From: Clostridia bacterium
Lineage (GTDB): Bacteria; Bacillota; Clostridia; UMGS1883
NCBI GenBank assembly: GCA_017466275.1
Contig: JAFTUL010000053.1
Span: 6,163-70,162, forward strand
Direction of reading: 5' to 3'
Length of the DNA: 64,000 bases
Shown one piece after another: positions 14,863 through 35,785 of the stretch (position 1 is its first letter; each line of letters begins with the position of its first letter). Under the pieces are notes generated by a model, which worked only from the letters and a program-made list of their open reading frames with translations, was not told the DNA's origin and did not search any database. Position numbers and translations under genes: made by a program.

Positions 14863-14908
14863 ATATAATTAGTCCTTTCAAAGCTGATTTTAAAGGGCCT
14901 CTGTATAC

Positions 14909-15016: not shown

Positions 15017-15063
15017 GCGAACAAAAGTTTGCTATAAAACTTACACGAAAGGAAAGATGCAAA

Positions 15064-17175: not shown

Positions 17176-17179
17176 AGAA

Positions 17180-19098: not shown

Positions 19099-19102
19099 AG
19101 GT

Positions 19103-19816
19103 ATGAATAAAAACGAGAAAAAGGTTATCACCTCTGCCAAAAGCGCGCAGGCAGAAGATAATATAAATGCTGAAAAGAGTGCGGAAGTCAGCACCCCGCA
19201 AACGGGCGATAAGGAAAGCTTTGCCGCCGGAAGCACAAGGGACAAGGACAAAGAATTTGATGCACTTATTGAAAATGAGTACAAGGAACAGTTTTCAAAA
19301 AAGGTGCAGAAAATCATCAGCAAAAGACTCAGGGAGGTGAAAAACTTGAAGGAAGAAAATGTGAAGAACGCAGAAAACAAGGATGAGATTTTAAGACGAC
19401 TTGCTCTGGAAAACAGACTCCTCAAAAAGCGTAACGAGGATGAATTTCAGCTTATGAAGCTTCGCAGTGAAGCGCAGAAGATGAGAGAGCAGGCGGCAGA
19501 AACAAAGGAGGTATACCCCGACTTTGATTTTGAAAAGGAGATAAAGAATCCTGAATTTATGAGACTTCTCAGGCTTGGTGTAGGCGTTAAAAACGCGTAC
19601 GAGGTTGCAAATATTGATGCAATTCTTGAAAAGAATACACAGGCAGCGGAGAAAAAGGTGGTTGATTCAATCCGCCTTAAGGGCAACAGACCCGTTGAAA
19701 ACGGCAGCGAGGGTGCATCGGGCATTTTACTCTCAGGCAATGCGTCCAAGCTTTCCAGAAAGGAAAGAGCGGAGCTTGCAAAGAGAGCTGCCAAGGGCGA
19801 AAGAATCAGCCTGTAA
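19103..19816 (+). CDS. Phage scaffolding protein
   Basis: K/E-rich predicted coiled coil immediately upstream of the major capsid gene. The start may be 19085 or 19103. Confidence 0.6.
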   Translation: MNKNEKKVITSAKSAQAEDNINAEKSAEVSTPQTGDKESFAAGSTRDKDKEFDALIENEYKEQFSKKVQKIISKRLREVKNLKEENVKNAENKDEILRRLALENRLLKKRNEDEFQLMKLRSEAQKMREQAAETKEVYPDFDFEKEIKNPEFMRLLRLGVGVKNAYEVANIDAILEKNTQAAEKKVVDSIRLKGNRPVENGSEGASGILLSGNASKLSRKERAELAKRAAKGERISL

Positions 19817-19848
19817 AAACTATTAAATAAAAATTGGAGGACTAATTA

Positions 19849-20874
19849 ATGTATAAGTTTAATTTGCAGCACTTTGCTGCAGGCGATGTTGTGAACACAA
19901 CAGCAGGCATTACAAATGCCAATACGGGAGAAAACACTCCCTATAGCGGAGAGGGCGGTCTTTCAGGTGAAATGAAGATCTACTACTCCGACTATCTTAT
20001 TGATATGGCGGAGCCCAAGCTGGTACACGACCAGTTCGGTCAGAAGTGCCCCATTCCCCAAAATGGCGGTAAGACTATTGAGTTCCGTAAGTATGACCCG
20101 CTTCCCAAGATGACAACTCCCCTTATGGAAGGTGTCACTCCTGAAGGTCAGAAGCTTGATATGAAGACCGTATCAGCAGAGGTTAAGCAGTTCGGCGGTT
20201 TCATTGAGCTTTCAGATATTCTTATGCTTACAGCCATTGACAATAATCTTGTACAGGCTACAAAGCTTCTCGGCGGTCAGGCAGGCAGAACTCTTGACAC
20301 TATTACAAGAGAGGTTCTTGCAGGCGGTACAAATGTACAGTTTGCAGAAGGTCAGGTAGAAAGCCGTGGCGAGCTTGTAGGCGGTAAGGAGGAGGGCAAC
20401 CACTACCTTACAGTTGATGCAATCAGACGTGCGGTAAGATACTTAAAGAAGATGAATGCCGAAACAATTAACGGCAGTTATGTGGGTATTATTCACCCCG
20501 ATGCTTCCTATGACCTTATGAGCGACCCCAAGTGGATAAATGTAAAGACTTACTCTGACCCCGAGGGTATCTATCAGGGCGAAATCGGTAAGATTGAAAA
20601 TGTCCGCTTCGTGGAAACCTCCGAAGCTAAGATTTTCGAGGGCGAGGGCAAGGACGGTGTTGACGTATATGCAACCCTCATCATCGGTGATAATGCTTAC
20701 GGTACAACAGAAATTTCAGGCGGCGGTCTTCAGCATATTGTAAAGCAGCTTGGCTCTGCAGGTACTGCTGACCCTCTCAATCAGCGTGCAACTGCAGGCT
20801 GGAAGGCTACAAAGGCGGCTGTAAGACTTGTTGAACCCTATATGATTCGTATTGAAACAGCATCAAGCTTCTGA
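19849..20874 (+). CDS. Major capsid protein (N4-gp56 / HK97-fold family)
   Basis: 341 aa. N-terminal FNLQHFA motif and overall resemblance to N4-gp56-type capsid proteins. Strong RBS GGAGG. Confidence 0.8.
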   Translation: MYKFNLQHFAAGDVVNTTAGITNANTGENTPYSGEGGLSGEMKIYYSDYLIDMAEPKLVHDQFGQKCPIPQNGGKTIEFRKYDPLPKMTTPLMEGVTPEGQKLDMKTVSAEVKQFGGFIELSDILMLTAIDNNLVQATKLLGGQAGRTLDTITREVLAGGTNVQFAEGQVESRGELVGGKEEGNHYLTVDAIRRAVRYLKKMNAETINGSYVGIIHPDASYDLMSDPKWINVKTYSDPEGIYQGEIGKIENVRFVETSEAKIFEGEGKDGVDVYATLIIGDNAYGTTEISGGGLQHIVKQLGSAGTADPLNQRATAGWKATKAAVRLVEPYMIRIETASSF

Positions 20875-20886
20875 TGAAGTAATAAT

Positions 20887-20913
20887 CCCTCAGTCGGCAA
20901 AACCGACTGAGGG
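20887..20913 (+). terminator. 11-bp stem-loop after the capsid gene (partial terminator or mRNA stabiliser)
   Basis: CCCTCAGTCGG-caaaa-CCGACTGAGGG. Only a weak T-tract follows. Confidence 0.4.
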
Positions 20914-20936
20914 GAAATTTGAAAGGAGTAAATATT

Positions 20937-21200
20937 ATGGCAACAAACAAAGAAACAAAGATTAATTCAAATACATTGGTGGAGATTGAGCTTTTCCGTG
21001 ATAACAGGGACTACAAGGACGACGTGTTTGTAGCGGTAAACGGCGAAAGCTGTGTTATTGCACGCGGTAAGAAGGTAATGGTAAAGAAGAAGTTTGCTGA
21101 CGTAATTGCACAGTCTATGAGTCAGGATGTAAAGACAGCAAAGCTTATGGATAATAAGTCCGACGAATTTTTCACTGAAGCTGCCGCAAGAAATATATAA
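20937..21200 (+). CDS. Hypothetical phage head-associated protein
   Basis: 87 aa. The ATG at 20937 follows AAAGGAG. Located between the capsid and fibre genes. Confidence 0.5.
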   Translation: MATNKETKINSNTLVEIELFRDNRDYKDDVFVAVNGESCVIARGKKVMVKKKFADVIAQSMSQDVKTAKLMDNKSDEFFTEAAARNI

Positions 21201-21215
21201 AAGGAGGTCTTTTAT

Positions 21216-22337
21216 ATGGCGGGATTCAATTTAGGAAGAATCATAGGTGAAAAGGGTGAAAAAGGCGAAACCGGTCCCAAGGGCGATACAGGTGCAAAGG
21301 GTGACAAGGGCGACAAGGGTGATAGCGGAAAGGACGGACTTACTCCTGTTTTTTCAGTAGGAGAAGTCACTACCCTTACAAACGGAGAATCAGCACTGGT
21401 GGAAATTGACTCTTCAAATCCAGAAAATCCCGTGCTATCATTTAAAATCCCTGCAGGAAAAGATGGCAGGGATGCTATGGGTGATATGCTCAAAACTGTT
21501 TATGACACCAAGGGGATTGGTACGGACATTTTTGAATATGCTAAAAAGCTCTTTGACGGTTGTCTTAAAACGGAGGGCGGAAATCTGTCGGGCGGCCTTA
21601 CCGTGGCAGAGTCCCCTCTTTCCGAAAGGGCTGTCCGTAATATCTCAATAGCCTCATCTTTGCCAGAAGCAGGGGCAGAGGGGGATGTCTTTATCAAATT
21701 AAATGATAAAAATTCAAAAACCCTCGGTGACTGCAATGCGGGGGACACGGTTATTATAAAGGAAAACGGAAAGGGCATTGTGTATTTTGTTGCAGGAAAA
21801 AATTATCACGGAGAAAATACCGTATCACTTTTACGAAAGGATTTGTGTCCCTTTAAGTGTTCCTATGACTACGAAAGACGTGAGCAATACCCTATGAGTG
21901 ATATTGATATATTTTTGGAATCGATGTTTATTTCTATCTATTCCCCTGAAGTGAGAAATTCACTTGTTTCTGTAAACAATATTGACAATGCTTACAGACA
22001 TTGCTTCATATTGAGTAAAAACGATTACACCTATATGAATTATTTTTCGGATGTGAAAAAACGGGCGGCATGTATAGAGGGAACAGGATATTATGAATCA
22101 CACCTGACTGCAAGTACAGGTACAAAAGGAAACATTGTCGGCGTAGGTACTGCAGGTGATTTTGTTTCAATAAGTATTTCCAGTATGGCATATTTCAGAC
22201 CGACAATCGTATTGCCTTCAGATTTTCCTGTAATTAATACTCAAAAGGACTCTCTGCCTGCCGTAATGCCGGTTACACCCAATCCCGGGATATATGTTTA
22301 TGCAGGCGGTGAATGGAGGGAGTGTGCTCTGTTATGA
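21216..22337 (+). CDS. Collagen-like repeat fibre protein
   Basis: 10 G-X-Y triplets (closing Gly at aa 41), GEKGEKGETGPKGDTGAKGDKGDKGDSGKDG (nt 21246-21338), then a 330-aa globular C-terminal region. Confidence 0.75.
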   Translation: MAGFNLGRIIGEKGEKGETGPKGDTGAKGDKGDKGDSGKDGLTPVFSVGEVTTLTNGESALVEIDSSNPENPVLSFKIPAGKDGRDAMGDMLKTVYDTKGIGTDIFEYAKKLFDGCLKTEGGNLSGGLTVAESPLSERAVRNISIASSLPEAGAEGDVFIKLNDKNSKTLGDCNAGDTVIIKENGKGIVYFVAGKNYHGENTVSLLRKDLCPFKCSYDYERREQYPMSDIDIFLESMFISIYSPEVRNSLVSVNNIDNAYRHCFILSKNDYTYMNYFSDVKKRAACIEGTGYYESHLTASTGTKGNIVGVGTAGDFVSISISSMAYFRPTIVLPSDFPVINTQKDSLPAVMPVTPNPGIYVYAGGEWRECALL

Positions 22338-22684
22338 CGGTGAATTCTGTAATTGAACAGACTATGAAGCTTCATCCCGACACCATTACCGATGCTGTGA
22401 AATGCCGCTGGCTCAGTGAACTTGACGGAAAAATAGTGCGTGAAACAATGCAACGTGATGATTTTGTCCCGTATAAATTCCCCGAAGACGGAGAAAAAGA
22501 GCTTGTAGTAAAAGAGCCCTACGACAATCTCTATGGGCTTTACATTATCGCTATGAGCGACTTTTTCAGTGGAGAAATGGCAAATTATGCGGCATCGGCA
22601 GTTTTGTTTGAAGAGGCATATTCAGAGTTTCGTAAAAATTACATTCGTAACAATATTCCTCCAAGCCATAATTATGTCATATAA
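22334..22684 (+). CDS. Head-tail connector/adaptor-like protein (gp6-like)
   Basis: About 116 aa. ATGA overlap with the fibre gene. Size, position and a Y/F-rich helical pattern fit connector proteins. Confidence 0.5.
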   Translation: MTVNSVIEQTMKLHPDTITDAVKCRWLSELDGKIVRETMQRDDFVPYKFPEDGEKELVVKEPYDNLYGLYIIAMSDFFSGEMANYAASAVLFEEAYSEFRKNYIRNNIPPSHNYVI

Positions 22685-22695
22685 GGAGTGATTGG

Positions 22696-24474
22696 ATGCA
22701 TCTTCCCATAATAAAAAAGGAAAACAGATACAGAAGAAGCATTGTAAATTTTGGAGGACTTAATCTCTCGCAAAGCTTCGCAGATGGAGAACTCAGGGAT
22801 TGTGTCGGAATTTCACACAGCGAATTTCCCTTTATAACCCAGAGAAAAAAGAGAGAAACTGAATTCAAATGTGCAGCCCCGACCTGTGCAATTTTTGGAG
22901 AAAACGAATTTGTTGCAGCAGATGACGGTCTGTATTTTAACCGTAAAAAGGTTGGTGACCTTTCCCCTGGGAAAAAGCATATTGCAGCATTGGGAAGCTT
23001 TATAACAGTTTTTCCAGACAAAATGTACTACAATATGGAAAATGGAGAGTTTAAATCTCTCAGTGGTGAGTGTCAAACTCAGGGAGCAACGGTCAAATTT
23101 ACAACGGACACAATCAGCGTGACTGCTGATTATTTTGTAGAGGAAAGAAGCAGAGAAAGCATTAAATTTCCGTCCGACATACTTCTTGTCACCTATGAAA
23201 AAGCCTCGGTTTCAGACGGAAAAGTGGGATTAACCGGCTTTTCCTTAAAAAAACCCAACGAACTTGGTGCAGATGCTATTCTGTTTGAAAAATGCAAGGT
23301 AAATCAGTATCGCATTGTGGAGAGCGTAAATTTTCTGGAAAAAGAAAACTGCTACGAGATTATAAATGAGCTTGTAACTGTAAGAAATGTCACCGAAAAA
23401 TTATTTGCTGATTTCAAGAAAGGTGACACGGTTGAAATAGAGGGATGTACCTCTTTCCCCAATAATAACAAGACGGCAACTGTTATATCAAGAACAGATA
23501 AAAAGCTTGTTTTTGCCGAGGGAACTTTTATTGAGGGGACAGAAAATGAAAGCATTACCATCAGGCGGAAAATTCCCGATTTTACATCTGTATGTGTTTA
23601 CGAGAACAGATTGTGGGGCTTTGTGGGAAATACCATTTACGCTTCCGCATTGGGAGATGTAACGGCATTTTTCACTTATCAGGGTATATCAACAGACAGT
23701 TATAGTGTGCAGTCAAACTCAGCAGGAGATTTTACAGCCTGCGTCACTTACGGAAACAGTTGCTTTTTCTTTAAAGAAACTTCCTGCTACAAGCTTTACG
23801 GAAGCCGTCCTGCCAATTTCAAGCTTACCGAATGTTACGCTATGGGACTTCTCAAGGAGGATTCCAAAAGTATTGCGACAGTTGGCGGCAGGCTTCTTTA
23901 CAAGGGCAATGGCGGTATTTACAGCTTTTACGGAAGTATGCCTGTGCGTATTTCCGATAAGCTCGGAGTGGTAAAAATACAAAATGCCGTAGCAGGAACA
24001 GATGGAAAGCTTTATTATCTGAGCGCAGACACAGAAAACGGACGAGAGGAGTTTATATTTGATACGGAGAAAAACCTCTGGTGTAAGTCGGGCGTAACTG
24101 ATGTGGCAGGTTATGCTTCCTACGGAGATACAGTGTATTGCCTGAAAGCAGACGGAATAGAGAAAATCTCAACTGAAACTGACAGCAATGCACAGTGGAG
24201 CATAATACTTTGCCCCTTTGACGAGAAATACTACAACACAAAAAATTATTCAAGGCTCCGCATAAAAGCACAGCTTTTCGAGGGAGCTTATATGGGTGTG
24301 GAAGTAAGGTATGACGGGAACAACTGGGAGAACATAGGAGTTTTTTACGGTGACAGTACAAGACATCTTAATATCCCCTGCACGGTAAAAAGCTGTCACG
24401 AATTTCATATCAGGATTTACGGCAAGGGGAAAAGCATCCTTGAATCCGTTGTGAGAGAATTCAGTATAAACTGA
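22696..24474 (+). CDS. Large unknown phage structural protein (candidate tail/nozzle)
   Basis: 592 aa, beta-rich with repeated YG/GN motifs. It is the largest ORF of the cluster and follows the connector. Confidence 0.5.
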   Translation: MHLPIIKKENRYRRSIVNFGGLNLSQSFADGELRDCVGISHSEFPFITQRKKRETEFKCAAPTCAIFGENEFVAADDGLYFNRKKVGDLSPGKKHIAALGSFITVFPDKMYYNMENGEFKSLSGECQTQGATVKFTTDTISVTADYFVEERSRESIKFPSDILLVTYEKASVSDGKVGLTGFSLKKPNELGADAILFEKCKVNQYRIVESVNFLEKENCYEIINELVTVRNVTEKLFADFKKGDTVEIEGCTSFPNNNKTATVISRTDKKLVFAEGTFIEGTENESITIRRKIPDFTSVCVYENRLWGFVGNTIYASALGDVTAFFTYQGISTDSYSVQSNSAGDFTACVTYGNSCFFFKETSCYKLYGSRPANFKLTECYAMGLLKEDSKSIATVGGRLLYKGNGGIYSFYGSMPVRISDKLGVVKIQNAVAGTDGKLYYLSADTENGREEFIFDTEKNLWCKSGVTDVAGYASYGDTVYCLKADGIEKISTETDSNAQWSIILCPFDEKYYNTKNYSRLRIKAQLFEGAYMGVEVRYDGNNWENIGVFYGDSTRHLNIPCTVKSCHEFHIRIYGKGKSILESVVREFSIN

Positions 24475-24483
24475 GGTGATACA

Positions 24484-24672
24484 ATGTTTATGAATCTTGG
24501 CGACCTTTCGGGCAAAAGCCCACAGGAAGCAATAAGCATTATAGAAAATTACATAAGAACAAATCAGGAAATGTTTGAATATATACTGACACACCTTGAC
24601 AGCTCCAACATTATTGAAATTGATTTAAGTAAAACAAATGTTTTACAAGGAGGACTAAATGAGCTACAATAA
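24484..24672 (+). CDS. Hypothetical phage protein
   Basis: 62 aa with RBS GAGGTG. Overlaps the next ORF. Confidence 0.45.
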   Translation: MFMNLGDLSGKSPQEAISIIENYIRTNQEMFEYILTHLDSSNIIEIDLSKTNVLQGGLNELQ

Positions 24673-25615
24673 GGAAATTGACTATCAGTCAAAAATTAAC
24701 GATGCAGTAGCAAACGGTGACTACAAAAGTGCCGCAAAATACGAGCAGAGCAGAAACGAGAAAATAGACAGCGAGGGGCTTAATTACGAAAAGACAAACC
24801 GCTACTCAGGTTGGCTTGATGATACAGACTATTCCAATGTGCTTAAGAAGCAAATGTCATCAGGTGCATCTAAAAGCTCCGTTTCGGACACTCTCAAAAA
24901 GCGTATTTCAAAGGCAAGCGGTACAGACGGGCTTACACAGTACGCCTATGACGACGTCTATGATGAGGCAATCCGTTACATAATGGGAAATGGAGTTTTT
25001 ACAGAAAGACCAACCTACAAAAATTCCTACGAAAGAGATATTTCAAGGCTTCTTGAAAAGCTTTTAAACACAAAATCCTTTTCATATAATCCCTATGACG
25101 ACGACCTTTACGAATTTTACAGACAGCAGTATATTCGTGAGGGGGACCGTGCAATGGAGGACCTTTTGGGTGAGCTTTCAGTTTCCACCGGAGGTGTCGC
25201 TTCAAGCTATGCTGTAAGTGCGGCGGCTCAGGCAAGGGAAAACTATAATCGCAAGCTTACCGATAAGATTCCCCAGCTTTATGAGGATGCGTATGAACGT
25301 TATATTGACGGAATTGAAAAGGACGAAAGTACCTTTAAGCTTCTTCAGGATTTGTCTGACGGTGAGTACAAGAGGTATCTTGACAGCATAGAGCTTTACA
25401 ATAAGGAAAGAGAGCTTGACTATAAGAGAGAAGCAGACGCAAGAGAAGAAGAATATAATCAAAGCCGTGACAGCGTGGATAAAGCACTGGCAAAGTGGAA
25501 GGTACTTGGTTATCTTGACGAGGAAAGTGCAAGAATCCTCGGACTTCCGGCAGGGCTTCACACAACAGACTACGACTATAAAAAGGCACAGCAGTACAAA
25601 ATTTACAGTAAATAA
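24659..25615 (+). CDS. Hypothetical phage structural protein
   Basis: 318 aa, Y/D/E-rich and helical. RBS AAGGAGG. Confidence 0.5.
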   Translation: MSYNKEIDYQSKINDAVANGDYKSAAKYEQSRNEKIDSEGLNYEKTNRYSGWLDDTDYSNVLKKQMSSGASKSSVSDTLKKRISKASGTDGLTQYAYDDVYDEAIRYIMGNGVFTERPTYKNSYERDISRLLEKLLNTKSFSYNPYDDDLYEFYRQQYIREGDRAMEDLLGELSVSTGGVASSYAVSAAAQARENYNRKLTDKIPQLYEDAYERYIDGIEKDESTFKLLQDLSDGEYKRYLDSIELYNKERELDYKREADAREEEYNQSRDSVDKALAKWKVLGYLDEESARILGLPAGLHTTDYDYKKAQQYKIYSK

Positions 25616-25658
25616 AACATAAACCCCCCCATGCTGTACCCAAAAGCACAAAAAACAC

Positions 25659-25687
25659 TTGCACAAATGCGGATAATTGGGTATAAT
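25659..25687 (+). promoter_or_regulatory. Sigma-A type promoter of nfnAB
   Basis: TTGCAC, 17 nt, TATAAT. Confidence 0.6.
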
Positions 25688-25725
25688 TAAACTCACACTG
25701 TTTATTTTGTAAGGAATGAATACAT

Positions 25726-26568
25726 ATGTACAGAATTATTGAAAAGACGGTGCTTAATCCCACCGTTACAAAAATGGTTATAGAAGCCCCACTTATTGCA
25801 AAAAAGGCGGAGCCGGGACAGTTTATAATTTTCAGGGTGTCGGAGAACGGCGAGAGAGTTCCTCTTACCATTGCCGACTATGACCGGGAAAAGGGACCAG
25901 TAACTATAATATTTCAGGTAGCAGGTGCGTCCACAATGGAGCTTAACGCCCTTAATGAGGGTGACTGCATATGTGATTTTGCAGGCCCTTTGGGAACTCC
26001 CAGCAAGATTAAAAACCTCAAAAAGGTTTGTGTTGTAGGCGGTGGAGTTGGATGTGCCATAGCATACCCCGTTGCAAAAAAACTTCACGAAAACGGATGT
26101 GAGGTACACGTAGTGGCAGGCTTCAGAAATAAGGATTTGGTGATTCTGGAAAAGGAATTTTCTGCAGTGAGCGACATAATGAAAATTATGACCGACGACG
26201 GAAGCTACGGAGAAAAAGGACTTGTCACAAATGCATTGGAGGAGCTTGTAAATGCAGGTAATGACTATGACGAGGTTATTGCAATAGGTCCTCTCATTAT
26301 GATGAAGTTCGTGTGCCTTACCACAAAGAAGTACGGTATAAAAACCACCGTTTCAATGAATCCGATTATGGTTGACGGAACAGGAATGTGTGGCGGATGC
26401 CGTCTTACCGTAGGCGGAGAAACTAAGTTTGCCTGCGTTGACGGTCCTGATTTTGACGGACATCAGGTAGATTTCGACGAGGCTATGAAACGCAATGGAA
26501 TATACAAGGAATTTGAAGCACATAAGAGAGAAGAAACCTGTAACCTCTTCAAAAAGGAGGTAATGTGA
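25726..26568 (+). CDS. nfnA: NfnA-like FAD/NAD-binding [2Fe-2S] subunit (sulfide/dihydroorotate dehydrogenase-like)
   Basis: 280 aa. Ferredoxin-reductase-type fold motifs (RVPLTIADY, VGGGVGCA) and a C-terminal CGGC...C cluster. Confidence 0.75.
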   Translation: MYRIIEKTVLNPTVTKMVIEAPLIAKKAEPGQFIIFRVSENGERVPLTIADYDREKGPVTIIFQVAGASTMELNALNEGDCICDFAGPLGTPSKIKNLKKVCVVGGGVGCAIAYPVAKKLHENGCEVHVVAGFRNKDLVILEKEFSAVSDIMKIMTDDGSYGEKGLVTNALEELVNAGNDYDEVIAIGPLIMMKFVCLTTKKYGIKTTVSMNPIMVDGTGMCGGCRLTVGGETKFACVDGPDFDGHQVDFDEAMKRNGIYKEFEAHKREETCNLFKKEVM

Positions 26569-26569
26569 T

Positions 26570-27958
26570 ATGACTAATATGAATCCTAAAAAATGCCCCA
26601 TGCCTTCTCTTGACCCCAAAGTAAGAAGCAAGAACTTTGAGGAGGTTGCCACTGGATATACCTATGAGATGGCAATAGAGGAAGCAAAAAGATGCTTTGC
26701 CTGCAAACACAAGCCGTGCAGAAGCAAATGCCCAGTAGGAATTGATATTCCTGCATTCATAGCAAAATTGGCAGCAGAGGATATAAAAGGTGCATATGAG
26801 ATTATCTCCCAAAGCAGTACTCTTCCCGCCGTGTGCGGAAGAGTGTGTCCGCAGGAAAACCAGTGCGAAAGTGCTTGTATACGCGGTATTAAAGGTGAGA
26901 GTGTAGCAATCGGCAGGCTTGAACGCTTTGTTGCCGATTACTGCAGAGAGCATTATAAGGAAGAAGCCAAGAAGCCTCAGCCAAACGGCAAAAAAGTGGC
27001 AATCATTGGTTCCGGCCCATCAGGACTTACTGCGGCAGGCGACCTCAGTAAACTCGGTTACGAGGTAACGGTTTTTGAAGCTCTTCATACCCCGGGCGGT
27101 GTTCTGGTTTACGGAATTCCCGAATTCAGACTTCCCAAAACGATTGTCAGTGAAGAAATTGACAAGCTTCAGGCAATGGGTGTGAAAATTGAAACCAATG
27201 TAATAATTGGTAAAACAATTACCGTTGATGAGCTTTTTGACGATGGTTTCTCGGCAGTTTATATAGCCAGCGGAGCAGGACTCCCAAGCTTTATGAATAT
27301 AAAGGGAGAGAGTCTTAACGGTGTTTACAGTGCAAACGAATACCTTACCAGAATAAATCTTATGAAGGCATATCTTCCCGATTCCAAGACTCCTGTTAAA
27401 AAGAGTAAGCGAGTTGCGGTAGTAGGCGGCGGAAACGTGGCAATGGATGCAGCACGCAGTGCAGTAAGACTCGGTGCCGAGGCGGTGTACATTATTTATA
27501 GGAGAGGTATGGAAGAGCTTCCTGCCAGAAACGAGGAAATCGAGCACGCGCACGAAGAGGGAGTTATTTTCAGAACATTGACTGCTCCCGTGGAAATACT
27601 CGGTGACGATGATGGTAATGTCCGCGGAATAAGATGCGTACGTATGGAGCTTGGTGAACCAGATGAAAGCGGAAGAAGAAGACCTGTTCCGATAGAGGGC
27701 AGCGAATATGACAGAGAAGTGGACACCGTAATTATGGCGATAGGAACAAGCCCCAACCCCCTTATCCGCAGTACAACCCCTGGTTTGGAAGTTAACAGAC
27801 GCGGATGTATAGTAACTGACGGAGAAGACGGAAAAACCTCCCGTGAGGGTGTGTATGCCGGCGGTGACGCAGTAACAGGTGCAGCAACGGTTATTCTTGC
27901 AATGGGTGCGGGAAAGAGTGCTGCAAAGGCAATTGATAATTATTTGAAAAATTTATAA
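26570..27958 (+). CDS. nfnB: NfnB / GltD-like NADPH-dependent oxidoreductase subunit
   Basis: 462 aa. N-terminal 2x[4Fe-4S] Cys motifs and two Rossmann motifs (IIGSGPSG, VVGGGNVAMD). Confidence 0.8.
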   Translation: MTNMNPKKCPMPSLDPKVRSKNFEEVATGYTYEMAIEEAKRCFACKHKPCRSKCPVGIDIPAFIAKLAAEDIKGAYEIISQSSTLPAVCGRVCPQENQCESACIRGIKGESVAIGRLERFVADYCREHYKEEAKKPQPNGKKVAIIGSGPSGLTAAGDLSKLGYEVTVFEALHTPGGVLVYGIPEFRLPKTIVSEEIDKLQAMGVKIETNVIIGKTITVDELFDDGFSAVYIASGAGLPSFMNIKGESLNGVYSANEYLTRINLMKAYLPDSKTPVKKSKRVAVVGGGNVAMDAARSAVRLGAEAVYIIYRRGMEELPARNEEIEHAHEEGVIFRTLTAPVEILGDDDGNVRGIRCVRMELGEPDESGRRRPVPIEGSEYDREVDTVIMAIGTSPNPLIRSTTPGLEVNRRGCIVTDGEDGKTSREGVYAGGDAVTGAATVILAMGAGKSAAKAIDNYLKNL

Positions 27959-27987
27959 AAAACTTAAAAAGTGTAACGACTTTCGAC

Positions 27988-28028
27988 AACCCCCGTGATA
28001 TATATATCGCGGGGGTTTGTGTTTTGGG
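27988..28028 (+). terminator. Intrinsic terminator after nfnB
   Basis: AACCCCCG...CGGGGGTT stem followed by TGTGTTTT. Flanked by a 10-bp inverted repeat AAAAGTGTAA/TTACACTTTT. Confidence 0.65.
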
Positions 28029-28062
28029 GGTCATTACACTTTTTATTTGTAAAGGAGACAAT

Positions 28063-29106
28063 ATGAACGAAATAATAATTAAAGTCAGCGGACAGTTTAT
28101 TTCAAAAAACAGTAAAAATGCAGGTGCAGCAGGAGAAGCAAATTCCTGCAGTATAAAATTCTGTTTTGACGACAGTTGGGCAGGATTTTCCAAAAGGGTT
28201 CTCTGGCGTGACAGCAAGGGAGAAAATCTTACAAGCGTAATCCTTGTTCCCGACATAGAAAATCAAAGTGAGTATAACAGTATCATTCCTGCCTGCATTA
28301 CAAAGGCTTCGGGCTGGTGTACATTCACGGTAGAGGGATATTTTGAATCAAATCCTGACATTGTAAATAAGTCAGTCAGCGACAGCCTTTTTATCGGATA
28401 TTCGGATCTAAGTGATGAGATTGTTCCCATAAGTCCGAGTGAGGCTATGCAGCTTCAGAGTGAATTTGAAACTTTAATGCCACGAGTAAAAAGTCTGATG
28501 GAGGAAACGCAAAGCGGTATAGAGTCCTTTTGTGAGAATCATAACGTTTGGGAGAATTACAACATTGACGCTGTGTATAAAGCAGGAAACAAGGTCTTTT
28601 ATAAAGGTTGTTCGTATGTTTGCATCAAAGAAAATCAGGGAGCATCACCCGAAAACAGTGATTGCTGGCAGATAATTGCAGACCGCGGACAGCGTGGGCA
28701 GAAAGGTAATCAGGGACCACAGGGTATTACTGGAGAAAGAGGAGAAAAAGGGGATAAGGGTGAAAAAGGCGATAAAGGAGATAAAGGCGATAGAGGTGAC
28801 AAGGGAGATAGAGGCATAAACGGAAGTATCGTTCCGTCTAACGGCTTTTACACCTTCAGCGTGGATGAAAACGGGGATTTGTGGCTTCATTATCCCGATT
28901 CTGCAAATAAGCCGGAAGTAACGCTCGATGGAAACGGAGAACTCATTTTGACTGTTGATGGGGAAACCGCTTACTCATTTAATCTTGGCATGGTAAAGGG
29001 TGAGAAAGGTGATTTGCCCAAAAAAGGAGTAGATTACTGGACGGAAAACGATAAAGCTGAAATAAAAGCTTATGTAGAAGATGCTATTTTAGGAGGTGCG
29101 TGGTAA
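28063..29106 (+). CDS. Tail-fibre-like protein with collagen tract and CBM5/12-like carbohydrate-binding motif
   Basis: The ATG at 28063 follows AAAGGAG. G-X-Y tract GQRGQKGNQGPQGITGERGEKGDKGEKGDKGDKGDRGDKGDRGINGS (nt 28687-28824), preceded by a W...Y..G..V.Y.G..Y......G..P.....W pattern. Confidence 0.7.
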   Translation: MNEIIIKVSGQFISKNSKNAGAAGEANSCSIKFCFDDSWAGFSKRVLWRDSKGENLTSVILVPDIENQSEYNSIIPACITKASGWCTFTVEGYFESNPDIVNKSVSDSLFIGYSDLSDEIVPISPSEAMQLQSEFETLMPRVKSLMEETQSGIESFCENHNVWENYNIDAVYKAGNKVFYKGCSYVCIKENQGASPENSDCWQIIADRGQRGQKGNQGPQGITGERGEKGDKGEKGDKGDKGDRGDKGDRGINGSIVPSNGFYTFSVDENGDLWLHYPDSANKPEVTLDGNGELILTVDGETAYSFNLGMVKGEKGDLPKKGVDYWTENDKAEIKAYVEDAILGGAW

Positions 29107-29927
29107 TGAGCGTTAACGAAAAAATGACAGCTATTGCCGATAATATCCGTGATAAGACAGGTGGCACAGAAATTCTTACCCTTGACGAGATGGCAAACGG
29201 TATAAATGAAGTATACGAAGCAGGGAAGCGGAAAGAATGGTCGGATTTTTGGGATGCATATCAGAATTACGGCCAAAGAGACAATTATCGTTATGGTTTT
29301 TATTTTTTTTATAGCAGTACAGACCCCGAACATTTTTGGACTGACGAAAATTTCAAACCTAAGTACGATATAAAACCTAACAACATTGCAGAGCATATGT
29401 TTGACGCTTGTGGTTTTACAGACCTTAAGGGAATTTTAGAAAAACAAGGAGTTGTATTAGATACATCAAGTGCAACAAATCTTCAATATGCATTTGCAAA
29501 CTGTACTTACTTAACAAGAGTTCCTGTTATAGATGTGTCAAAGAGTAAAAATGCGAATGTAATACAATATCTTTTTCAGTTTTGCAATAGTCTGGAATAC
29601 GTTGAAAAACTAATAATCCCAAGCACAGTCGATACCTCATTTTTTTCTGTGTTTAACGGTTGCTACAAGCTTAAAGAAGTTCGTATTGAGGGAGTAATAG
29701 CAACGAGCATTTCTTTTACCGGTACGAAGTATCTGTCTGTTGAAAGTATGAAAAGCGTAATATCTTGTTTAAAGAATTATGCAGGAACGACAAAAGAGCA
29801 TACATATACAGTAACTTTCAAGGCAGTAGTATTTGAAGCATTAGAAGCATTAGGAGAAACACCTCCAAGCGGAAACACATGGGCAGAACATATTGATAAC
29901 CTTAAATGGAATCTTACTTTATCATAA
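29106..29927 (+). CDS. Fibre/receptor-binding-like protein with BspA-type leucine-rich repeats
   Basis: N-terminus MSVNEKMTAIADNIRDKTGG, as seen in clostridial prophage fibre proteins. C-terminal repeats resemble BspA LRRs. Confidence 0.55.
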   Translation: MSVNEKMTAIADNIRDKTGGTEILTLDEMANGINEVYEAGKRKEWSDFWDAYQNYGQRDNYRYGFYFFYSSTDPEHFWTDENFKPKYDIKPNNIAEHMFDACGFTDLKGILEKQGVVLDTSSATNLQYAFANCTYLTRVPVIDVSKSKNANVIQYLFQFCNSLEYVEKLIIPSTVDTSFFSVFNGCYKLKEVRIEGVIATSISFTGTKYLSVESMKSVISCLKNYAGTTKEHTYTVTFKAVVFEALEALGETPPSGNTWAEHIDNLKWNLTLS

Positions 29928-29942
29928 GGGGGGGGTAAATAA

Positions 29943-30191
29943 ATGTACAGAAAAGTTAAGGCAAAGCTTGAAAACACTATATTTGAAGCAAGAGAAGAAA
30001 ACGGAAGAATCTTATCCTATCGCATAAGTCCTGCTGAGGGATACAAGCTTCACGAAATAACACTTGATGAATGCGTTAATGAAATAGGAGAAATAAAACC
30101 TGGATTTACAAAATCCTATATAACTGCAGGAGCAGGATACGATTTTGAAAAAAATGAAAGACAGATTTATGCAGAGGAGGTGAAAGAATGA
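29943..30191 (+). CDS. Hypothetical phage protein
   Basis: 82 aa located between the fibre and holin genes. 4-nt overlap with the holin. Confidence 0.45.
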   Translation: MYRKVKAKLENTIFEAREENGRILSYRISPAEGYKLHEITLDECVNEIGEIKPGFTKSYITAGAGYDFEKNERQIYAEEVKE

Positions 30192-30616
30192 ACACCACAA
30201 TAAAAAATACCATCCTTGCTGTCTGTGCAGGGATGGGAAGTGTGTTGGCAGAAGCTTTTGGAGGTTGGGATTCTTTTTTAAAGGCATTGGTTCTTTTTAT
30301 GGTTGCAGATTACATAACGGGGATGACCGTTGCCCTTGTTTTTCACAAATCGGGAAAAACAAAAAACGGAGGTGCCTCAAGTGCGGTAGGGTTTAAAGGT
30401 ATTGTTAAAAAGCTATGCATCTTTTTCCTTGTGGCTTTGGCTGTAAGGGTTGATTTAATTACGGGCACAAGTTACGTGCGTAATGCTACAATATTCTTTT
30501 TCTTAGGTAATGAGGGACTCAGTGTTATTGAAAATATCGGGCGTATGGGGGTTAAGTATCCGGCATTTTTAAAGAAAGCTCTGGAAACCTTAAAAGAGAA
30601 AAATGAAGAAACATAA
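30188..30616 (+). CDS. Phage holin (holin_4_1 / toxin-secretion type)
   Basis: 142 aa with 3 predicted TM segments and a charged C-terminus. Located directly upstream of the amidase. Confidence 0.7.
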   Translation: MNTTIKNTILAVCAGMGSVLAEAFGGWDSFLKALVLFMVADYITGMTVALVFHKSGKTKNGGASSAVGFKGIVKKLCIFFLVALAVRVDLITGTSYVRNATIFFFLGNEGLSVIENIGRMGVKYPAFLKKALETLKEKNEET

Positions 30617-30659
30617 TTTCTGAAATTAAACATATTATGTACAAGGAAGGATTGATAAA

Positions 30660-31406
30660 ATGAGTGAGTTTAAAAAATACAATATAGAAGAATTTGATAA
30701 ATACATAACCTCGCTTAATGTTTCACGTGGGATAAAGCTTGTTCAGCTTCATCATACATATGTCCCCAGTTATAAGCAGTTTACAGGGAACAATCATATT
30801 CAGTTGCAGACGGGAATGAGAAATTACCACATAAATACCAACGGCTGGTCAGACATAGCACAGCATTTTACGATTTTCCCTGACGGTGCAATAGTGACGG
30901 GAAGAAGTGTGGAAATGATTCCTGCAGGCATAAAGGGGGCAAATGCAGGTGCCATATGTATAGAGTGTGTGGGGAATTTTGATGCGGGCGGAGATGTGAT
31001 GAGAAAAGAACAGAAAGATGCAATCGTAAGCGTTGTAAAAATCCTTATGCATAAATTTTCTCTTCAGCCTGAAAACGCAATTGTGTATCACGGATGGTGG
31101 ACCGCATCGGGCAAGAAACTGGGTGATTATACAAAAGGTAAATCCGCCAAAACCTGCCCCGGTACAAATTTCTTCGGGGGAAATACAAGAAAGGCATTTG
31201 AGGAGAATTTGCTTCCGCTTGTTGCCGGTTATGAAAAGAAAACAAAGAAAATGCTGGAAACTGCAAATGATATTACATGGGAATTAAACCATACTTACTT
31301 TCCCATTGATGATGTTGATAGATTCAAGAAAATTCTTGACGAAGCAAAAAAAGAAAACAATCCTTTGTATTGGGGCTATTATAAGCTTGTGAACAGAATA
31401 AAGTAA
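30660..31406 (+). CDS. N-acetylmuramoyl-L-alanine amidase endolysin (Amidase_2/PGRP-like)
   Basis: 248 aa. Motifs LVQLHHT and ...CPG... are consistent with Amidase_2. Follows the holin. Confidence 0.75.
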   Translation: MSEFKKYNIEEFDKYITSLNVSRGIKLVQLHHTYVPSYKQFTGNNHIQLQTGMRNYHINTNGWSDIAQHFTIFPDGAIVTGRSVEMIPAGIKGANAGAICIECVGNFDAGGDVMRKEQKDAIVSVVKILMHKFSLQPENAIVYHGWWTASGKKLGDYTKGKSAKTCPGTNFFGGNTRKAFEENLLPLVAGYEKKTKKMLETANDITWELNHTYFPIDDVDRFKKILDEAKKENNPLYWGYYKLVNRIK

Positions 31407-31421
31407 ATATTTATAAACAAC

Positions 31422-31459
31422 AAAAAACAGCACCTACTTAAATGTAGATGCTGTTTTTT
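31422..31459 (+). terminator. Intrinsic terminator after the endolysin
   Basis: CAGCACCTAC-ttaaat-GTAGATGCTG followed by TTTTTT. Confidence 0.8.
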
Positions 31460-31511
31460 ATCGCCTTTAGGATGGTGCAATAGATAGAATCCAAGGTAAA
31501 ATTACGAACAC

Positions 31512-31549
31512 AAAAAAATAAGAACCACCAAAAGGTGATTCTTATTTTT
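31512..31549 (-). terminator. Terminator of the tRNA operon
   Basis: AATAAGAACCACC-aaaa-GGTGATTCTTATT. The A7 on the plus strand gives a U-tract on the minus strand. Confidence 0.7.
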
Positions 31550-31550
31550 A

Positions 31551-31626
31551 TGGTGCGCCATCAGGGACTCGAACCCTGGACACCCTGATTAAGAGTCAGA
31601 TGCTCTACCAACTGAGCTAATGGCAC
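31551..31626 (-). tRNA. tRNA-Lys (anticodon CTT)
   Basis: The reverse complement folds as a cloverleaf: GTGCCATTAGCTCAGTTGGTAGAGC...CTCTTAA...GGTTCGAGTCC...CACCA. CCA is encoded. Confidence 0.9.
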
Positions 31627-31631
31627 AAATA

Positions 31632-31707
31632 TGGAGCTGCCCAGCAGATTCGAACTGCCGACCTCTTCCTTACCAAGGAAGTGCTCTGCCAACTGAGCTA
31701 GGGCAGC
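31632..31707 (-). tRNA. tRNA-Thr (anticodon GGT)
   Basis: Reverse complement GCTGCCCTAGCTCAGTTGGCAGAGC, anticodon loop TTGGTAA, T-arm GGTTCGAATC. CCA is encoded. Confidence 0.9.
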
Positions 31708-31712
31708 AAAAT

Positions 31713-31789
31713 TGGCGACCCGGAAGGGGCTCGAACCCTCGACCTCCAGCGTGACAGGCTGGCGTTCTAACCAACTGAACTACCGGGCC
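31713..31789 (-). tRNA. tRNA-Asp (anticodon GTC)
   Basis: Reverse complement GGCCCGGTAGTTCAGTTGGTTAGAAC, anticodon loop CTGTCAC, T-arm GGTTCGAGCCC. CCA is encoded. Confidence 0.9.
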
Positions 31790-31850
31790 GGATATGTCGT
31801 CACGTCAGATGCCGATGCGTCTATGCACTTGTTATCCGCTGACTTGACAT

Positions 31851-31879
31851 ATTATACTTGTTTTATATCGGTTTGTCAA
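31851..31879 (-). promoter_or_regulatory. Consensus promoter of the tRNA operon
   Basis: On the minus strand: TTGACA (31879-31874), 17 nt, TATAAT (31856-31851). Confidence 0.7.
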
Positions 31880-31996
31880 GAGGTTTTTTTAAAAACTTTT
31901 AAAAAAGTTTTAACCTCGAGTGTAAACCGTGTTTCTGCTTGAATTTTATTTACAGACGTTGTATAATAATACATAAGTATTATAAGGGGGCAAATT

Positions 31997-32272
31997 ATGA
32001 AAAACAACTATGCCTACTTTCAAAATAAAGATTGCGAATATTACCCCTGCCACAAGGCGGAGGGGGAGGATTTTAACTGCCTTTTCTGCTTCTGCCCGCT
32101 TTATGCTATGGGCAGAGAGTGCGGAGGTAACTTCACTTATACTGAAGACGGGATAAAGGATTGCAGTGCTTGTACAATTCCACACAGTAAAGACGGATAT
32201 GATTATATCGTAAAGAAATGTCCTGAAATCATTAAAAAAATCAAGGAAGAAGCTGATAACGGTGAATTATAA
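31997..32272 (+). CDS. Cysteine-rich small domain protein (putative metal-binding)
   Basis: 91 aa with 10 Cys, including CEYYPCH and CLFCFCP. Confidence 0.7.
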   Translation: MKNNYAYFQNKDCEYYPCHKAEGEDFNCLFCFCPLYAMGRECGGNFTYTEDGIKDCSACTIPHSKDGYDYIVKKCPEIIKKIKEEADNGEL

Positions 32273-33038
32273 TTACCATACACACACAGCCTTTTGCGGT
32301 CATGCAACAGGGGAAATATCAGAATATATACAAAAAGCCGTAGAAAGCGGAATTATCCATATGGGATTTTCCGACCATGCCCCTTACTTTTTTGCTGATG
32401 ACAAAGCCACAGGAAAAAGAATGACAAGCACCGAGGCGAGGGAGTACGTTGCTTCAATCCGCAGACTACGAGAGCTTTATAAGAATAAGATAGATATAAA
32501 AATTGGCTTTGAAATGGAGTACTATCCTGATAAGTTCCAGGATATGCTGAACTTTGTAAAGAGCCTCGGTGCTGAATATCTCATCCTTGGTCAGCACTAT
32601 ATGAGGGGAATTTTTACAGGCGGTTATCATGTAATAAACGGTAAAGCTACCGACGAAGACCTCATAAACTATGTAAGGGATGTTATCACGGCAATGGAAA
32701 GCGGTGTTTTCACTTATGTAGCACATCCCGATATGATAAACTATCTTGGTGACGAATCACTTTACGAAAAGGAAATGCGTAAGCTTTGCATAGCATCAAA
32801 AAGGACAAATACACCCCTTGAAATTAATTGTCAGGGGATTCGGGAGGAAAGAATTTATCCTGCCGAGAGATTCTGGAAAATTGCAGGGGAGGTGGGCTGT
32901 CCCGTTACAATAGGACTCGATGCCCATAGTGCCGATACGGCAGGTGACAAAGAATCGGAGGAAAAAGCACAGAAGCTTATCAATAAATACAATCTTAATT
33001 ACATTGGAAAACCCAACCTGATACCAATTCAGGAATAA
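32262..33038 (+). CDS. hisK: PHP-family histidinol-phosphatase (HisJ/HisK type)
   Basis: N-terminus NYHTHTAFCGHA and later SDHAP. GTG start overlaps the upstream gene by 11 nt. Confidence 0.75.
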   Translation: MNYNYHTHTAFCGHATGEISEYIQKAVESGIIHMGFSDHAPYFFADDKATGKRMTSTEAREYVASIRRLRELYKNKIDIKIGFEMEYYPDKFQDMLNFVKSLGAEYLILGQHYMRGIFTGGYHVINGKATDEDLINYVRDVITAMESGVFTYVAHPDMINYLGDESLYEKEMRKLCIASKRTNTPLEINCQGIREERIYPAERFWKIAGEVGCPVTIGLDAHSADTAGDKESEEKAQKLINKYNLNYIGKPNLIPIQE

Positions 33039-33122
33039 AATGTAAAATTATGTTTTAATGTTGAAATATTTGTAAATTTCTGTTATAATAAGCAAAGCAT
33101 TTCAATTTTCGGAGGGATAAAA

Positions 33123-33989
33123 ATGAGAAAATGGGGAGACAGATATGATGCCTACCGTATACGCAATATAGACGGTGTTCATCATTATATGGCATACCTT
33201 ATGCCGAAGAGAACCGATGCGGAGGTTTATATTAACGAGAAAATAGATGTTACAGAGCTTCTTTCTTATATAAAAGAGAAAAATTTGTCAGGGGAAAGAA
33301 AGGTAACAATTTTCCACTGTGTAATTGCTGCCGTAGCACGAACAGTCAAGATGCGTCCCCTTTTAAACCGTTACATTTCGGGAAAGCGTTATTATATGCG
33401 TCACGACATTTCCCTTGGCTTTACAATAAAGAAAAAGTTTGAGGACCACGCAGAGGAATCTCTTATGATATATAAGCCCAAGGATGATGAAAACCTCTGT
33501 GCGATAACCGACAGACTCACACCCCACGTGAAAGAGGCAAAGAAAGAAAACAGCGGAAGAAGTGTTGACAATATCTTAAATATTGTCAAGAAATTCCCCA
33601 AGTGGTTTATGAATCTTTTTATGTGGTTTATGAATTTTGCTGATTCTCACGGCTTTATGCCCAAGGCGTTCAGCAGTGTGGATATAAATTACTGCACGGT
33701 GCTTCTTTCAAATCTCGGTAGCATCAAGTGTGATGCAGTATATCACCATCTTAATAATTTCGGAACAAACGGTGTTGTTATAACTATCGGTGAGGTACAT
33801 AAGGAGAACGTCATTGACGAAAACGGAGTTTCTCAGGTGCGTGACGTTATGAGCATAGGTGTTACTTTAGATGAGCGAATTGCGGACGGATTTTATTTTG
33901 CACGCAGTCTTAAACTCATAAAGCATCTGTTTAAAAATCCGCACCTGCTTGACAAAACATTAGGGGAGGAAATTGACTTTGAATTCTGA
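33123..33989 (+). CDS. 2-oxoacid dehydrogenase E2-type acyltransferase, catalytic domain only (CAT-like fold)
   Basis: 288 aa. A C-terminal DERIADG-type motif (H replaced by E) resembling the E2 active-site DHRxxDG. No lipoyl domain. Confidence 0.6.
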   Translation: MRKWGDRYDAYRIRNIDGVHHYMAYLMPKRTDAEVYINEKIDVTELLSYIKEKNLSGERKVTIFHCVIAAVARTVKMRPLLNRYISGKRYYMRHDISLGFTIKKKFEDHAEESLMIYKPKDDENLCAITDRLTPHVKEAKKENSGRSVDNILNIVKKFPKWFMNLFMWFMNFADSHGFMPKAFSSVDINYCTVLLSNLGSIKCDAVYHHLNNFGTNGVVITIGEVHKENVIDENGVSQVRDVMSIGVTLDERIADGFYFARSLKLIKHLFKNPHLLDKTLGEEIDFEF

Positions 33990-35679: not shown

Positions 35680-35684
35680 CATTA

Positions 35685-35712
35685 AAAGGAGTCTGTCAAG
35701 GCTCCTTTTTTG
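35685..35712 (+). terminator. Intrinsic terminator after the AMP-ligase
   Basis: AAAGGAG-tctgtcaag-CTCCTTT followed by a T-tract. Confidence 0.75.
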
Positions 35713-35713
35713 G

Positions 35714-35742
35714 TTGACAAATGCCAACAAATGGGGTAAAAT
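35714..35742 (+). promoter_or_regulatory. glyQS promoter
   Basis: TTGACA, 17 nt, TAAAAT. The short leader leaves no room for a T-box. Confidence 0.6.
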
Positions 35743-35785
35743 ATAGGATAATGGAAAAATATTATTTTTTAGGGAGGCACCATTG

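Follow-up and report, generated by a model that had tools for sequence, protein, structure and literature searches.

An nfnAB operon at the boundary between the head and lysis operons of a podovirus-derived, apparently domesticated element of gut Clostridia

FpGTA, the podovirus-like gene transfer agent (GTA) of Faecalibacterium prausnitzii, is encoded by two separate operons (Borodovich et al., Nat Commun 2026, PMC12946183). Operon I, of 10.5 kb, codes for a TerS-like protein, the large terminase TerL, a portal protein, Prp, an N4-gp56 capsid protein and several hypothetical proteins, and ends in a gene annotated as 'TolA', the product of which is a K/E-rich, abundant virion protein; operon II, lying about 125 kb away in F. 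prausnitzii, carries the genes for a fibre, a receptor-binding protein, a holin and an endolysin (proteins RCH50844-50853 and RCH48794-48800, with Prp as RCH50850.1) (PMC12946183). FpGTA has no replication genes, its podovirus-like 40-nm particles package 8.4-8.9 kb of host DNA, and it cannot package its own locus (PMC12946183). The first descriptions of GTAs from gut Firmicutes date from 2026, and the routes by which host genomes fix and break up these clusters are still an open question. We describe herein a stretch of 64,000 nucleotides from a Clostridia bacterium (GenBank assembly GCA_017466275.1, contig JAFTUL010000053.1, positions 6,163 to 70,162; hereafter the window), in which one compact phage-type cluster of about 17 kb (14272-31406; all features are on the plus strand unless stated) is interrupted by nfnAB, a two-gene operon of the NADH-dependent reduced-ferredoxin:NADP+ oxidoreductase family. 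The history that we regard as probable is that an nfnAB operon was captured with its native promoter, was inserted once into the inter-operon terminator of a chromosomally fixed, podovirus-derived, FpGTA-like element of ~17 kb, has since been kept under purifying selection, and has been lost at least once. Literature searches for nfnAB in a prophage, in a GTA or as an auxiliary metabolic gene returned no report.

The element resembles FpGTA in several respects, a comparison made by description, the element being known from its genes alone. Both belong to gut Oscillospirales/Ruminococcaceae; the head/packaging operon of ~10.5 kb has its counterpart in 10.55 kb from the first small open reading frame (ORF), o82, to o318, and agrees with it in TerS-like, TerL, portal, scaffold, capsid and hypothetical structural genes and in closing on a K/E-rich protein, an abundant virion component of FpGTA; a second unit holds fibre, receptor-binding protein, holin and endolysin genes; and the capsid protein of the window matches the same NCBIfam family, N4-gp56. 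Head, packaging, tail-fibre and lysis genes are present without replication or integration genes, which is the gene content of a GTA. Two basal relatives, cited here like all other loci by L numbers, carry Peptidase_Prp between the portal and scaffold genes (L111, 13616-13930; L112, 13674-13994), a further likeness that the lineage of the window, without Prp, does not share. The nfnAB site corresponds to the boundary between operons I and II of FpGTA. The two systems differ in that the operons of FpGTA are ~125 kb apart, whereas those of the window are 2.4 kb apart with only nfnAB between them, and are contiguous in other relatives; moreover, no association with nfnAB has been reported for FpGTA. 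Membership of the FpGTA family is plausible on the indirect basis of the capsid family name and the gene order, and we infer that the element may produce GTA-type particles.

Two other systems offer useful comparisons. Phage morons, a concept associated with Hendrix and Juhala, are reportedly insertions, each a gene with its promoter and terminator, that separate neighboring genes in lambdoid phages. The nfnAB cassette is likewise placed between genes that are adjacent in relatives (L098, L107 and L108), has its own sigma-70 promoter and a downstream terminator, and could be active during repression of the late genes on either side. It differs from a moron in being a 2.4-kb, two-gene operon of core metabolism instead of a small accessory gene, in having a composition that is not distinct from that of the host, in ending at a terminator that apparently belongs to the element, and in lying on a carrier whose mobility as a phage is not demonstrable. 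PBSX is a defective prophage, or GTA-like particle, of Bacillus subtilis. Like the present element, it is a chromosomally fixed late-gene cluster of a Firmicute, with repressor, terminase, head, tail and holin-lysin genes and no self-propagation; it differs in being myovirus-like, ~28 kb long, and under the control of Xre and the sigma factor Xpf. To our knowledge, no central-metabolism operon is embedded in PBSX.

By every sequence criterion the two genes of the cassette belong to the NfnAB family. nfnA (25726-26568) codes for a 280-amino-acid small subunit that binds flavin adenine dinucleotide (FAD) and has the [2Fe-2S] motif D-x4-C-x2-C...C, with the Pfam domains DHODB_Fe-S_bind (PyrK-type) and NAD_binding_1 and a score of 415 bits against NCBIfam NF004862 (cut-off 220). 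nfnB (26570-27958) codes for a 462-amino-acid, GltD-like large subunit with two [4Fe-4S] clusters, FAD and an NADPH site; it contains Fer4_20 and Pyr_redox_2 and scores 599 bits against TIGR01316 (cut-off 472). NfnB aligned end to end with Thermotoga maritima NfnB (PDB 4ylf_B, E=6.9e-170), with both [4Fe-4S] cysteine motifs and both GxGxxG/A motifs in register, and NfnA aligned with the small subunit of Pyrococcus furiosus NfnI (PDB 5jca_S, E=1.4e-88), with DGTGMCGGCR...FACVDGP retained. The two-subunit architecture, full-length alignment and conserved cofactor motifs are thus those of T. maritima NfnAB (4YLF/4YRY) and P. furiosus NfnI (5JCA); the difference is that the nfnAB of the window, known here from sequence, sits in a phage-derived cluster. 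The stop codon of nfnA ends at 26568, nfnB starts at 26570 behind a strong ribosome-binding site, and the same adjacency was found in 80+ loci having both genes on the contig. Both genes are intact and adjacent, and this layout marks them as translationally coupled and probably co-transcribed. The nfnAB pair would be a functional oxidoreductase operon of the type found in cells.

Relatives were collected through homologues of TerL and of o318 (24659-25615; 318 amino acids; 222 homologues), the last gene of the head/packaging operon, for which Pfam and PHROGs gave no family assignment. Same-species contigs and the metagenome-assembled genome (MAG) HGM11516 showed an arrangement identical to that of the window. 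In five further loci (L100, L101, L103, L105 and L109), all from other assemblies and L109 from GCA_045545055.1, nfnAB likewise lies between o318 and the collagen-like tail-fibre gene (28063-29106; Pfam Collagen, PHROG tail-fibre families) that begins the fibre/lysis operon. Compared with the window, TerL of these five carriers is 84-93% identical, NfnA 83-91% and NfnB 79-91%, while o318 is 75% identical in L101, 71% in L103, 61% in L105, 55% in L109 and 56% in L100. Empty sites also exist: a gap of just 31-71 nucleotides separates o318 from the fibre gene behind it in L098, L107 and L108, and a distant outgroup (L096) is without nfnAB as well. A metagenome scan by o318 alignment, with overly degenerate patterns, gave only four loci, the filled L100 and the empty L098 among them. 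Since the same arrangement recurs in independent assemblies (ENA, NCBI, Logan and a whole-genome-shotgun metagenome), the chance that the window is a chimera or mis-join is negligible. The placement of an nfnAB cassette between a 318-amino-acid ORF and a tail-fibre gene, as read from the letters alone in an earlier note on this DNA, is borne out by the ORFs, the domain matches and the phage flanks, with TerL, portal, capsid and internal-virion-like genes to the left and fibre, holin and amidase genes to the right.

The cassettes carried by the element have a single origin. Among 85 NfnAB pairs, the element-borne ones were monophyletic with 100% bootstrap support, and their internal grouping matched the tree of the element. 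In the latter, built from six concatenated proteins, the carriers and L198 formed a clade at 96%, with L107/L108 and L111/L112 outside. Chromosomal NfnAB reached at most 78% (NfnA) and 76% (NfnB) identity to the window among the best 80 GTDB loci, the same-species MAG CAAGBE01 excepted. L198 is without nfnAB and is nested in the carrier clade, a split that would place it outside having 0% support; its o318 is followed directly by the fibre gene, and a scar persists there, made up of the terminator-arm copy on the left, the 3' motif ATGTAACGACTTTCGTCAA and, finally, the terminator. Because there is one NfnAB clade, with a grouping congruent with the element tree and a shared slot, a single insertion is favored, and one insertion in an ancestor followed by at least one later loss is indicated as the simplest history. 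It was also observed that o318 of L198 (10001-10912) lacks the conserved C-terminal ~45 residues (LGYLDEESA...DYDYKKAQ) and has a short, unrelated tail instead.

The earlier note had also raised the possibility that phage genes became fixed around a host locus, and had named two unrelated phage remnants on either side of nfnAB as something to look for. Such a trapped locus, with nfnAB ancestral at the site, would agree with the normally chromosomal location of nfnAB, which the note had assumed and which was confirmed, a phage flank being absent at 79 of the 80 best GTDB loci, and with the finding that nfnAB and gltX are neighbors in one distant genome (L039). It is contradicted by the empty sites: the left and right halves are contiguous in L098, L107, L108 and L198, they co-occur and co-diverge in every relative, and together they form one functional set of head, fibre and lysis genes. 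Since the halves are one element, contiguous without nfnAB, it follows that nfnAB entered the element and not the reverse. In addition, the duplicated terminator arm beside the cassette, described below, is a signature of insertion. We therefore regard a trapped host locus as highly improbable.

The o318/fibre boundary may not be reserved for nfnAB. In L112 (21229-21431; contig ERZ28613786 scaffold_344), a basal relative with a TerL 82% identical, a pepD-like Peptidase_M20 gene begins 63 nucleotides past the o318 homologue, where the window has nfnAB; it has its own TTGTAA-17-TATAAT promoter, and the locus ends there. This gene could be a second kind of cargo or could mark a split between the head and the fibre/lysis operons, and it is a hint that host genes other than nfnAB can settle at this boundary.

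The sequences at both edges of the cassette suggest how it may have entered. The sigma-70-type promoter of nfnAB (25659-25687) consists of TTGCAC (25659-25664), a 17-nucleotide spacer and TATAAT (25682-25687), exactly as claimed in the earlier note; a listing made by motif scan gives its position shifted by one base. Sigma-70 matches numbered 42 against 39 expected, a single match being not above chance, and the promoter is credible because TTGC-N19-TATAAT upstream of nfnA is invariant in six of six nfnAB carriers, divergent elements in which the spacer and leader have changed. By our count, it agrees at 23 of 30 positions with the promoter that precedes nfnAB on a Gemmiger chromosome (L015), and chromosomal nfnAB of the neighboring clade has the same type of promoter. 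Since the promoter type is common to chromosomal nfnAB, the cassette appears to have brought its native promoter with it.

On the other side lies an intrinsic terminator (27988-28028), a hairpin of 13 pairs (27988-28017) followed by the T-rich tail TGTGTTTT, which ranks second among terminator-like sites in 17000-36500. A hairpin follows nfnB in all six carriers, with compensatory changes at 2 of the 13 predicted pairs. The view that this terminator is the cassette's own, as had been proposed, over-interprets it: a similar hairpin, CCCCCGTGA...TCACGGGGG, stands between o318 and the fibre gene in the nfnAB-free L107 and L108, and because it is already present at empty sites, the hairpin after nfnB was probably not imported with the cassette and is probably the element's ancestral inter-operon terminator. 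A remnant at the left junction, AAAACATAAACCCCCCCATG (25614-25635), repeats this terminator's A-tract and 5' arm but has no 3' arm, and is complementary to 28011-28025 (15 nucleotides, 93%). The window, L101, L103 and L105 all have such a 5'-arm copy, without its 3' partner, just past the o318 stop codon; that of L105 is a perfect 16-nucleotide match. Our reading is that nfnAB was inserted into or beside the inter-operon terminator with duplication of one arm, and that the head operon may have lost its terminator in the process, the terminator now lying 3' of nfnB.

Just 3' of the nfnB stop codon is a conserved 23-nucleotide motif, AAAAGTGTAACGACTTTCGACAA (27967-27989), which occurs once in the window. 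Its 15-nucleotide core, GTGTAACGACTTTCG, is exact in L101, L103, L105 and the same-species contigs, and by eye the bases on either side of it differ little. The motif is near-invariant in four carriers despite saturated synonymous sites, and it survives in the scar of the nfnAB-less L198. An Rfam scan of 14000-32500 found three tRNAs only, with no riboswitch or known motif near nfnAB and no match for the 23-nucleotide motif. A 10-bp inverted repeat that had been described as bracketing the terminator, with arms AAAAGTGTAA (27967-27976) and TTACACTTTT (28034-28043), is present and really extends to 16 nucleotides with 94% complementarity (27965-27980 paired with 28030-28045). Its left arm falls in the conserved motif, and its right arm belongs to this species only, being absent from L101, L103 and L105. 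The role ascribed to the repeat was therefore over-interpreted, and as a cassette boundary it was rejected on account of the species-specific right arm. No evident sigma-70 promoter was found between the hairpin and the fibre gene.

Both genes of the cassette are under strong purifying selection. Between the window and the five other carriers, dN/dS was 0.04-0.07 for nfnA and 0.04-0.09 for nfnB, as low as for TerL, portal and the host PHP gene, while synonymous sites were saturated (dS about 1-3). The structural genes of the element are all under purifying selection as well, with dN/dS of 0.03-0.3. This bears on the notion that the element-borne nfnAB is a redundant, horizontally acquired extra copy, neutral or mildly useful, with the native nfnAB elsewhere and a position uninformative about function. 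The genome CAYLPQ01 gives it some substance: its element is empty (L107), and nfnAB lies on another contig (L051) without phage neighbors and in an NfnAB clade different from that of the element-borne copies. One lineage, L198, has moreover dispensed with the cassette. Strong selection over saturated divergence in all six carriers speaks against redundancy, no second copy was found within the 64-kb window, and among the matches listed there was one nfnB match for the same-species MAG, in a GTDB scan with NfnB that used exact-peptide patterns and was narrow. Redundancy, which would be compatible with the capture history proposed here, is possible but in our judgment doubtful.

How nfnAB should be classed depends on its carrier. 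Integrase, excisionase, replication and DNA-metabolism genes were absent from the window and from about 15 relatives. Core host genes lie directly left of the repressor gene in the window, L110, L111 and L112: the left flank of L110 is that of the window, the repressor of L111 adjoins rimP-nusA-infB-rbfA-truB-ribF, and that of L112 adjoins PGM and VanZ genes. On the right, L103 has in common with the window a tRNA trio (inverted), PHP and an E2-like gene. The divergence of the element resembles that of host genes in these comparisons (window, L110 left flank, L103 right flank). This evidence, together with the purifying selection and the resemblance to FpGTA, supports the view that the carrier is a chromosomally fixed, podovirus-derived, domesticated element without mobility genes. 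Domestication had been suggested before, on the argument of a host locus surrounded by phage genes; the conclusion is retained, and the argument is replaced by a different body of evidence.

In one alternative, the carrier would be an active, temperate podovirus whose particles contain its own genome, and nfnAB would be a true moron or auxiliary gene serving lysogenic conversion or supplying NADPH during infection. The moron-like architecture is real, with a slot between genes adjacent in relatives and a promoter of its own; a full packaging, head, fibre and lysis set is under purifying selection; an SOS-type, self-cleaving repressor is present; the chromosomal contexts of L105, L108, L109, L111 and L112 differ; and IMG/VR classes the left half as viral. 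Such a phage would, however, need mobility functions in trans, and its repressor gene adjoins host core operons at a locus that lineages of species-level divergence have in common. Of the systems described so far, moreover, the one closest to it is a GTA unable to package its own locus (PMC12946183). Among 50,697 phage records there was no isolated phage relative closer than 27% identity in the portal, and the only close relatives were unverified virome scaffolds. An IMG/VR scan with NfnB gave one unrelated match and no viral contig with nfnAB of the element clade, one made with the fibre protein gave collagen-repeat matches in such numbers that it was of no use, and none of the IMG/VR contigs or phage records pairs nfnAB of this clade with the element. 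We thus consider an active phage distinctly unlikely. The category of a viral auxiliary metabolic gene does not appear to fit nfnAB, there being neither integrase nor replication genes and the repressor being adjoined by host genes, and we read it as a moron-like host operon in a domesticated element. The moron interpretation of the earlier note accordingly stands as to the slot, the conserved promoter and the single insertion, and falls short as to the carrier, which gives no sign of being an autonomous phage.

Several observations on virome data belong here. The best NfnB matches in the phage records were UNVERIFIED virome scaffolds without element genes, and as instances of phage-borne nfnAB they were rejected for that reason. 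Five UNVERIFIED 'Bacteriophage sp.' entries from human faecal virome (L007-L010 and L113; MT836119, MT835804, MT835785, MT836284 and MT835662) are pieces of bacterial chromosome; some carry nfnAB, and L113 holds a distant relative of the element beside host genes. These scaffolds fit either host DNA packaged by GTA-like particles or contamination. Five independent IMG/VR viral contigs (L091-L095) run precisely to the o318-homologue stop codon and no further, which is consistent with provirus-boundary trimming at the point where host-like genes, probably nfnAB, start.

Some points weigh against the capture history and should be kept in view. The trees were neighbor-joining trees on a modest sample of relatives. 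The host flanks differ in L105, L108, L109, L111 and L112, so either the element moved or the genomes were rearranged, and some mobility is possible. Comparison of codon usage and third-position GC content (GC3), one of the checks proposed for this locus, separated nfnAB from neither host nor element genes: its GC, GC3 and relative synonymous codon usage lie inside the range of host and left-half element genes, and this test is silent on origin. Finally, the transcription pattern proposed below is one that we infer from the junction motifs.

The rest of the element is as follows. Its left boundary is a repressor of the CI/LexA-like, self-cleaving kind (HTH_3 and Peptidase_S24 by Pfam; 14272-14862, minus strand), which scores 108.5 against NCBIfam lexA, just below the cut-off of 110.95, and adjoins the element in every relative, differing host flanks notwithstanding. 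Three small ORFs of 82, 66 and 84 amino acids follow (15064-15757; 56-94% identity in relatives), the third of which overlaps the start of terL and is a candidate small terminase or regulator; their sole family match is a weak one to the DUF2116 zinc-finger. For TerL (15754-17175; Pfam Terminase_6N), a threshold of E<1e-50 gave 7401 homologues, and many of these sit on 100-400-kb chromosomal contigs. Next come a P22/SU10-like portal gene (17458-19098; Pfam), a gene for a 243-amino-acid protein in the scaffold position between portal and capsid (19085-19816; PHROGs phrog_13908), and the major capsid gene of the N4-gp56 family (19849-20874; TIGR04387, 323.7 bits against a cut-off of 60; Pfam Phage_capsid_3/4). 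The head operon continues with a collagen-repeat/DUF6273 fibre-like protein (21216-22337; Pfam, PHROGs) and a 592-amino-acid internal-virion-protein-like gene (22696-24474; phrog_511, E=4.5e-41), and closes with o318. Beyond the cassette and the fibre gene lie a gene for a 275-amino-acid protein with weak similarity to BspA-type leucine-rich repeats, a candidate receptor-binding protein (29100-29927), a holin gene (Phage_holin_4_1; 30188-30616), and an endolysin gene for an N-acetylmuramoyl-L-alanine amidase (30660-31406), the right boundary of the element. The left 14 kb of the window is host DNA with dnaJ, prmA, rsmE, a MiaB-like gene, gltX and a PGA_cap gene; right of the amidase are three host tRNA genes (31551-31789), then host genes.

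The capsid protein has 341 amino acids in the window, L101 and L103, and 437-453 in L100, L105, L107-L109, L111, L112 and L198; the longer forms have an insertion of ~90-100 residues after residue ~266, which may be a decoration or insertion domain gained or lost. Capsid clusters of a high-GC relative of the element (P0241, P0265, P0267 and P0272) have up to 9868 member sequences, and therefore some version of the element family must reside in an extremely abundant gut bacterium. At the right edge, the tRNA Lys/Thr/Asp trio is on the minus strand in the window, with a perfect TTGACA-17-TATAAT at 31879-31851, and is inverted to the plus strand in L103 (16997-17235), a local inversion. As an ancient attachment site these tRNAs were rejected, the trio lying past the amidase only in the window and L103 and being absent from L105, L108 and L109. 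In the nfnAB-free L108, a Phage_Mu_F/ribonuclease fusion and a barstar immunity gene, resembling toxin-immunity cargo, stand directly past the amidase (14572-15420).

A mechanism can be proposed for the capture of nfnAB by this fixed element. An nfnAB operon with its native sigma-70 promoter would have been captured and inserted once, in an ancestor, at the terminator dividing the head/packaging operon (small ORFs to o318) from the fibre/holin/endolysin operon, and would then have been inherited with the element across several species of gut Clostridia and lost in at least one lineage. In the uninduced cell, the S24 repressor would silence the element, and nfnAB would be transcribed from its own housekeeping promoter; the hairpin past nfnB would end this transcript and may shield the cell from leaky expression of fibre, holin and lysin. 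Upon SOS-type cleavage of the repressor, a late transcript would meet no terminator past o318 and would run through nfnAB. Lacking an evident sigma-70 promoter past the hairpin, the fibre and lysis genes probably rely on read-through or antitermination. The enzyme itself would serve the redox balance of the cell (NADH + reduced ferredoxin + 2 NADP+ -> 2 NADPH) and have no role in viral infection.

A bolder proposal, that nfnAB is the cell's only Nfn enzyme and that the locus represents an early stage in the fission of a GTA cluster, is tentative and in our estimation rather unlikely. It would arrange the known states in a series, from contiguous operons in basal-type relatives, through a host operon at the terminator as in the window, to operons 125 kb apart in Faecalibacterium; the pepD-like gene of L112 may fill the same slot.

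The locus is of interest in that it provides a dated, sequence-level series at one junction: contiguous operons, operons interrupted with a duplicated arm, a scar of loss, and the published far-apart state. The entry, persistence and exit of a host operon at the inter-operon junction of a domesticated phage cluster are thereby documented with their scars. There are consequences for virus catalogues too. Automated virus callers appear to cut these elements at nfnAB, and catalogues would truncate the family systematically; moreover, host genes between viral genes, like nfnAB, are liable to be taken for auxiliary metabolic genes of viruses. Were nfnAB the sole copy, abundant gut anaerobes would have a central redox enzyme transcriptionally entangled with an SOS-controlled lysis cluster, and if the fission and sole-copy proposal were true, deletion of the cluster would be difficult on account of the cassette. 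Because the terminator past o318 appears to have been destroyed, the NADPH-generating enzyme may come under the late transcript on induction, and if this is true, particle production would be coupled to redox supply.

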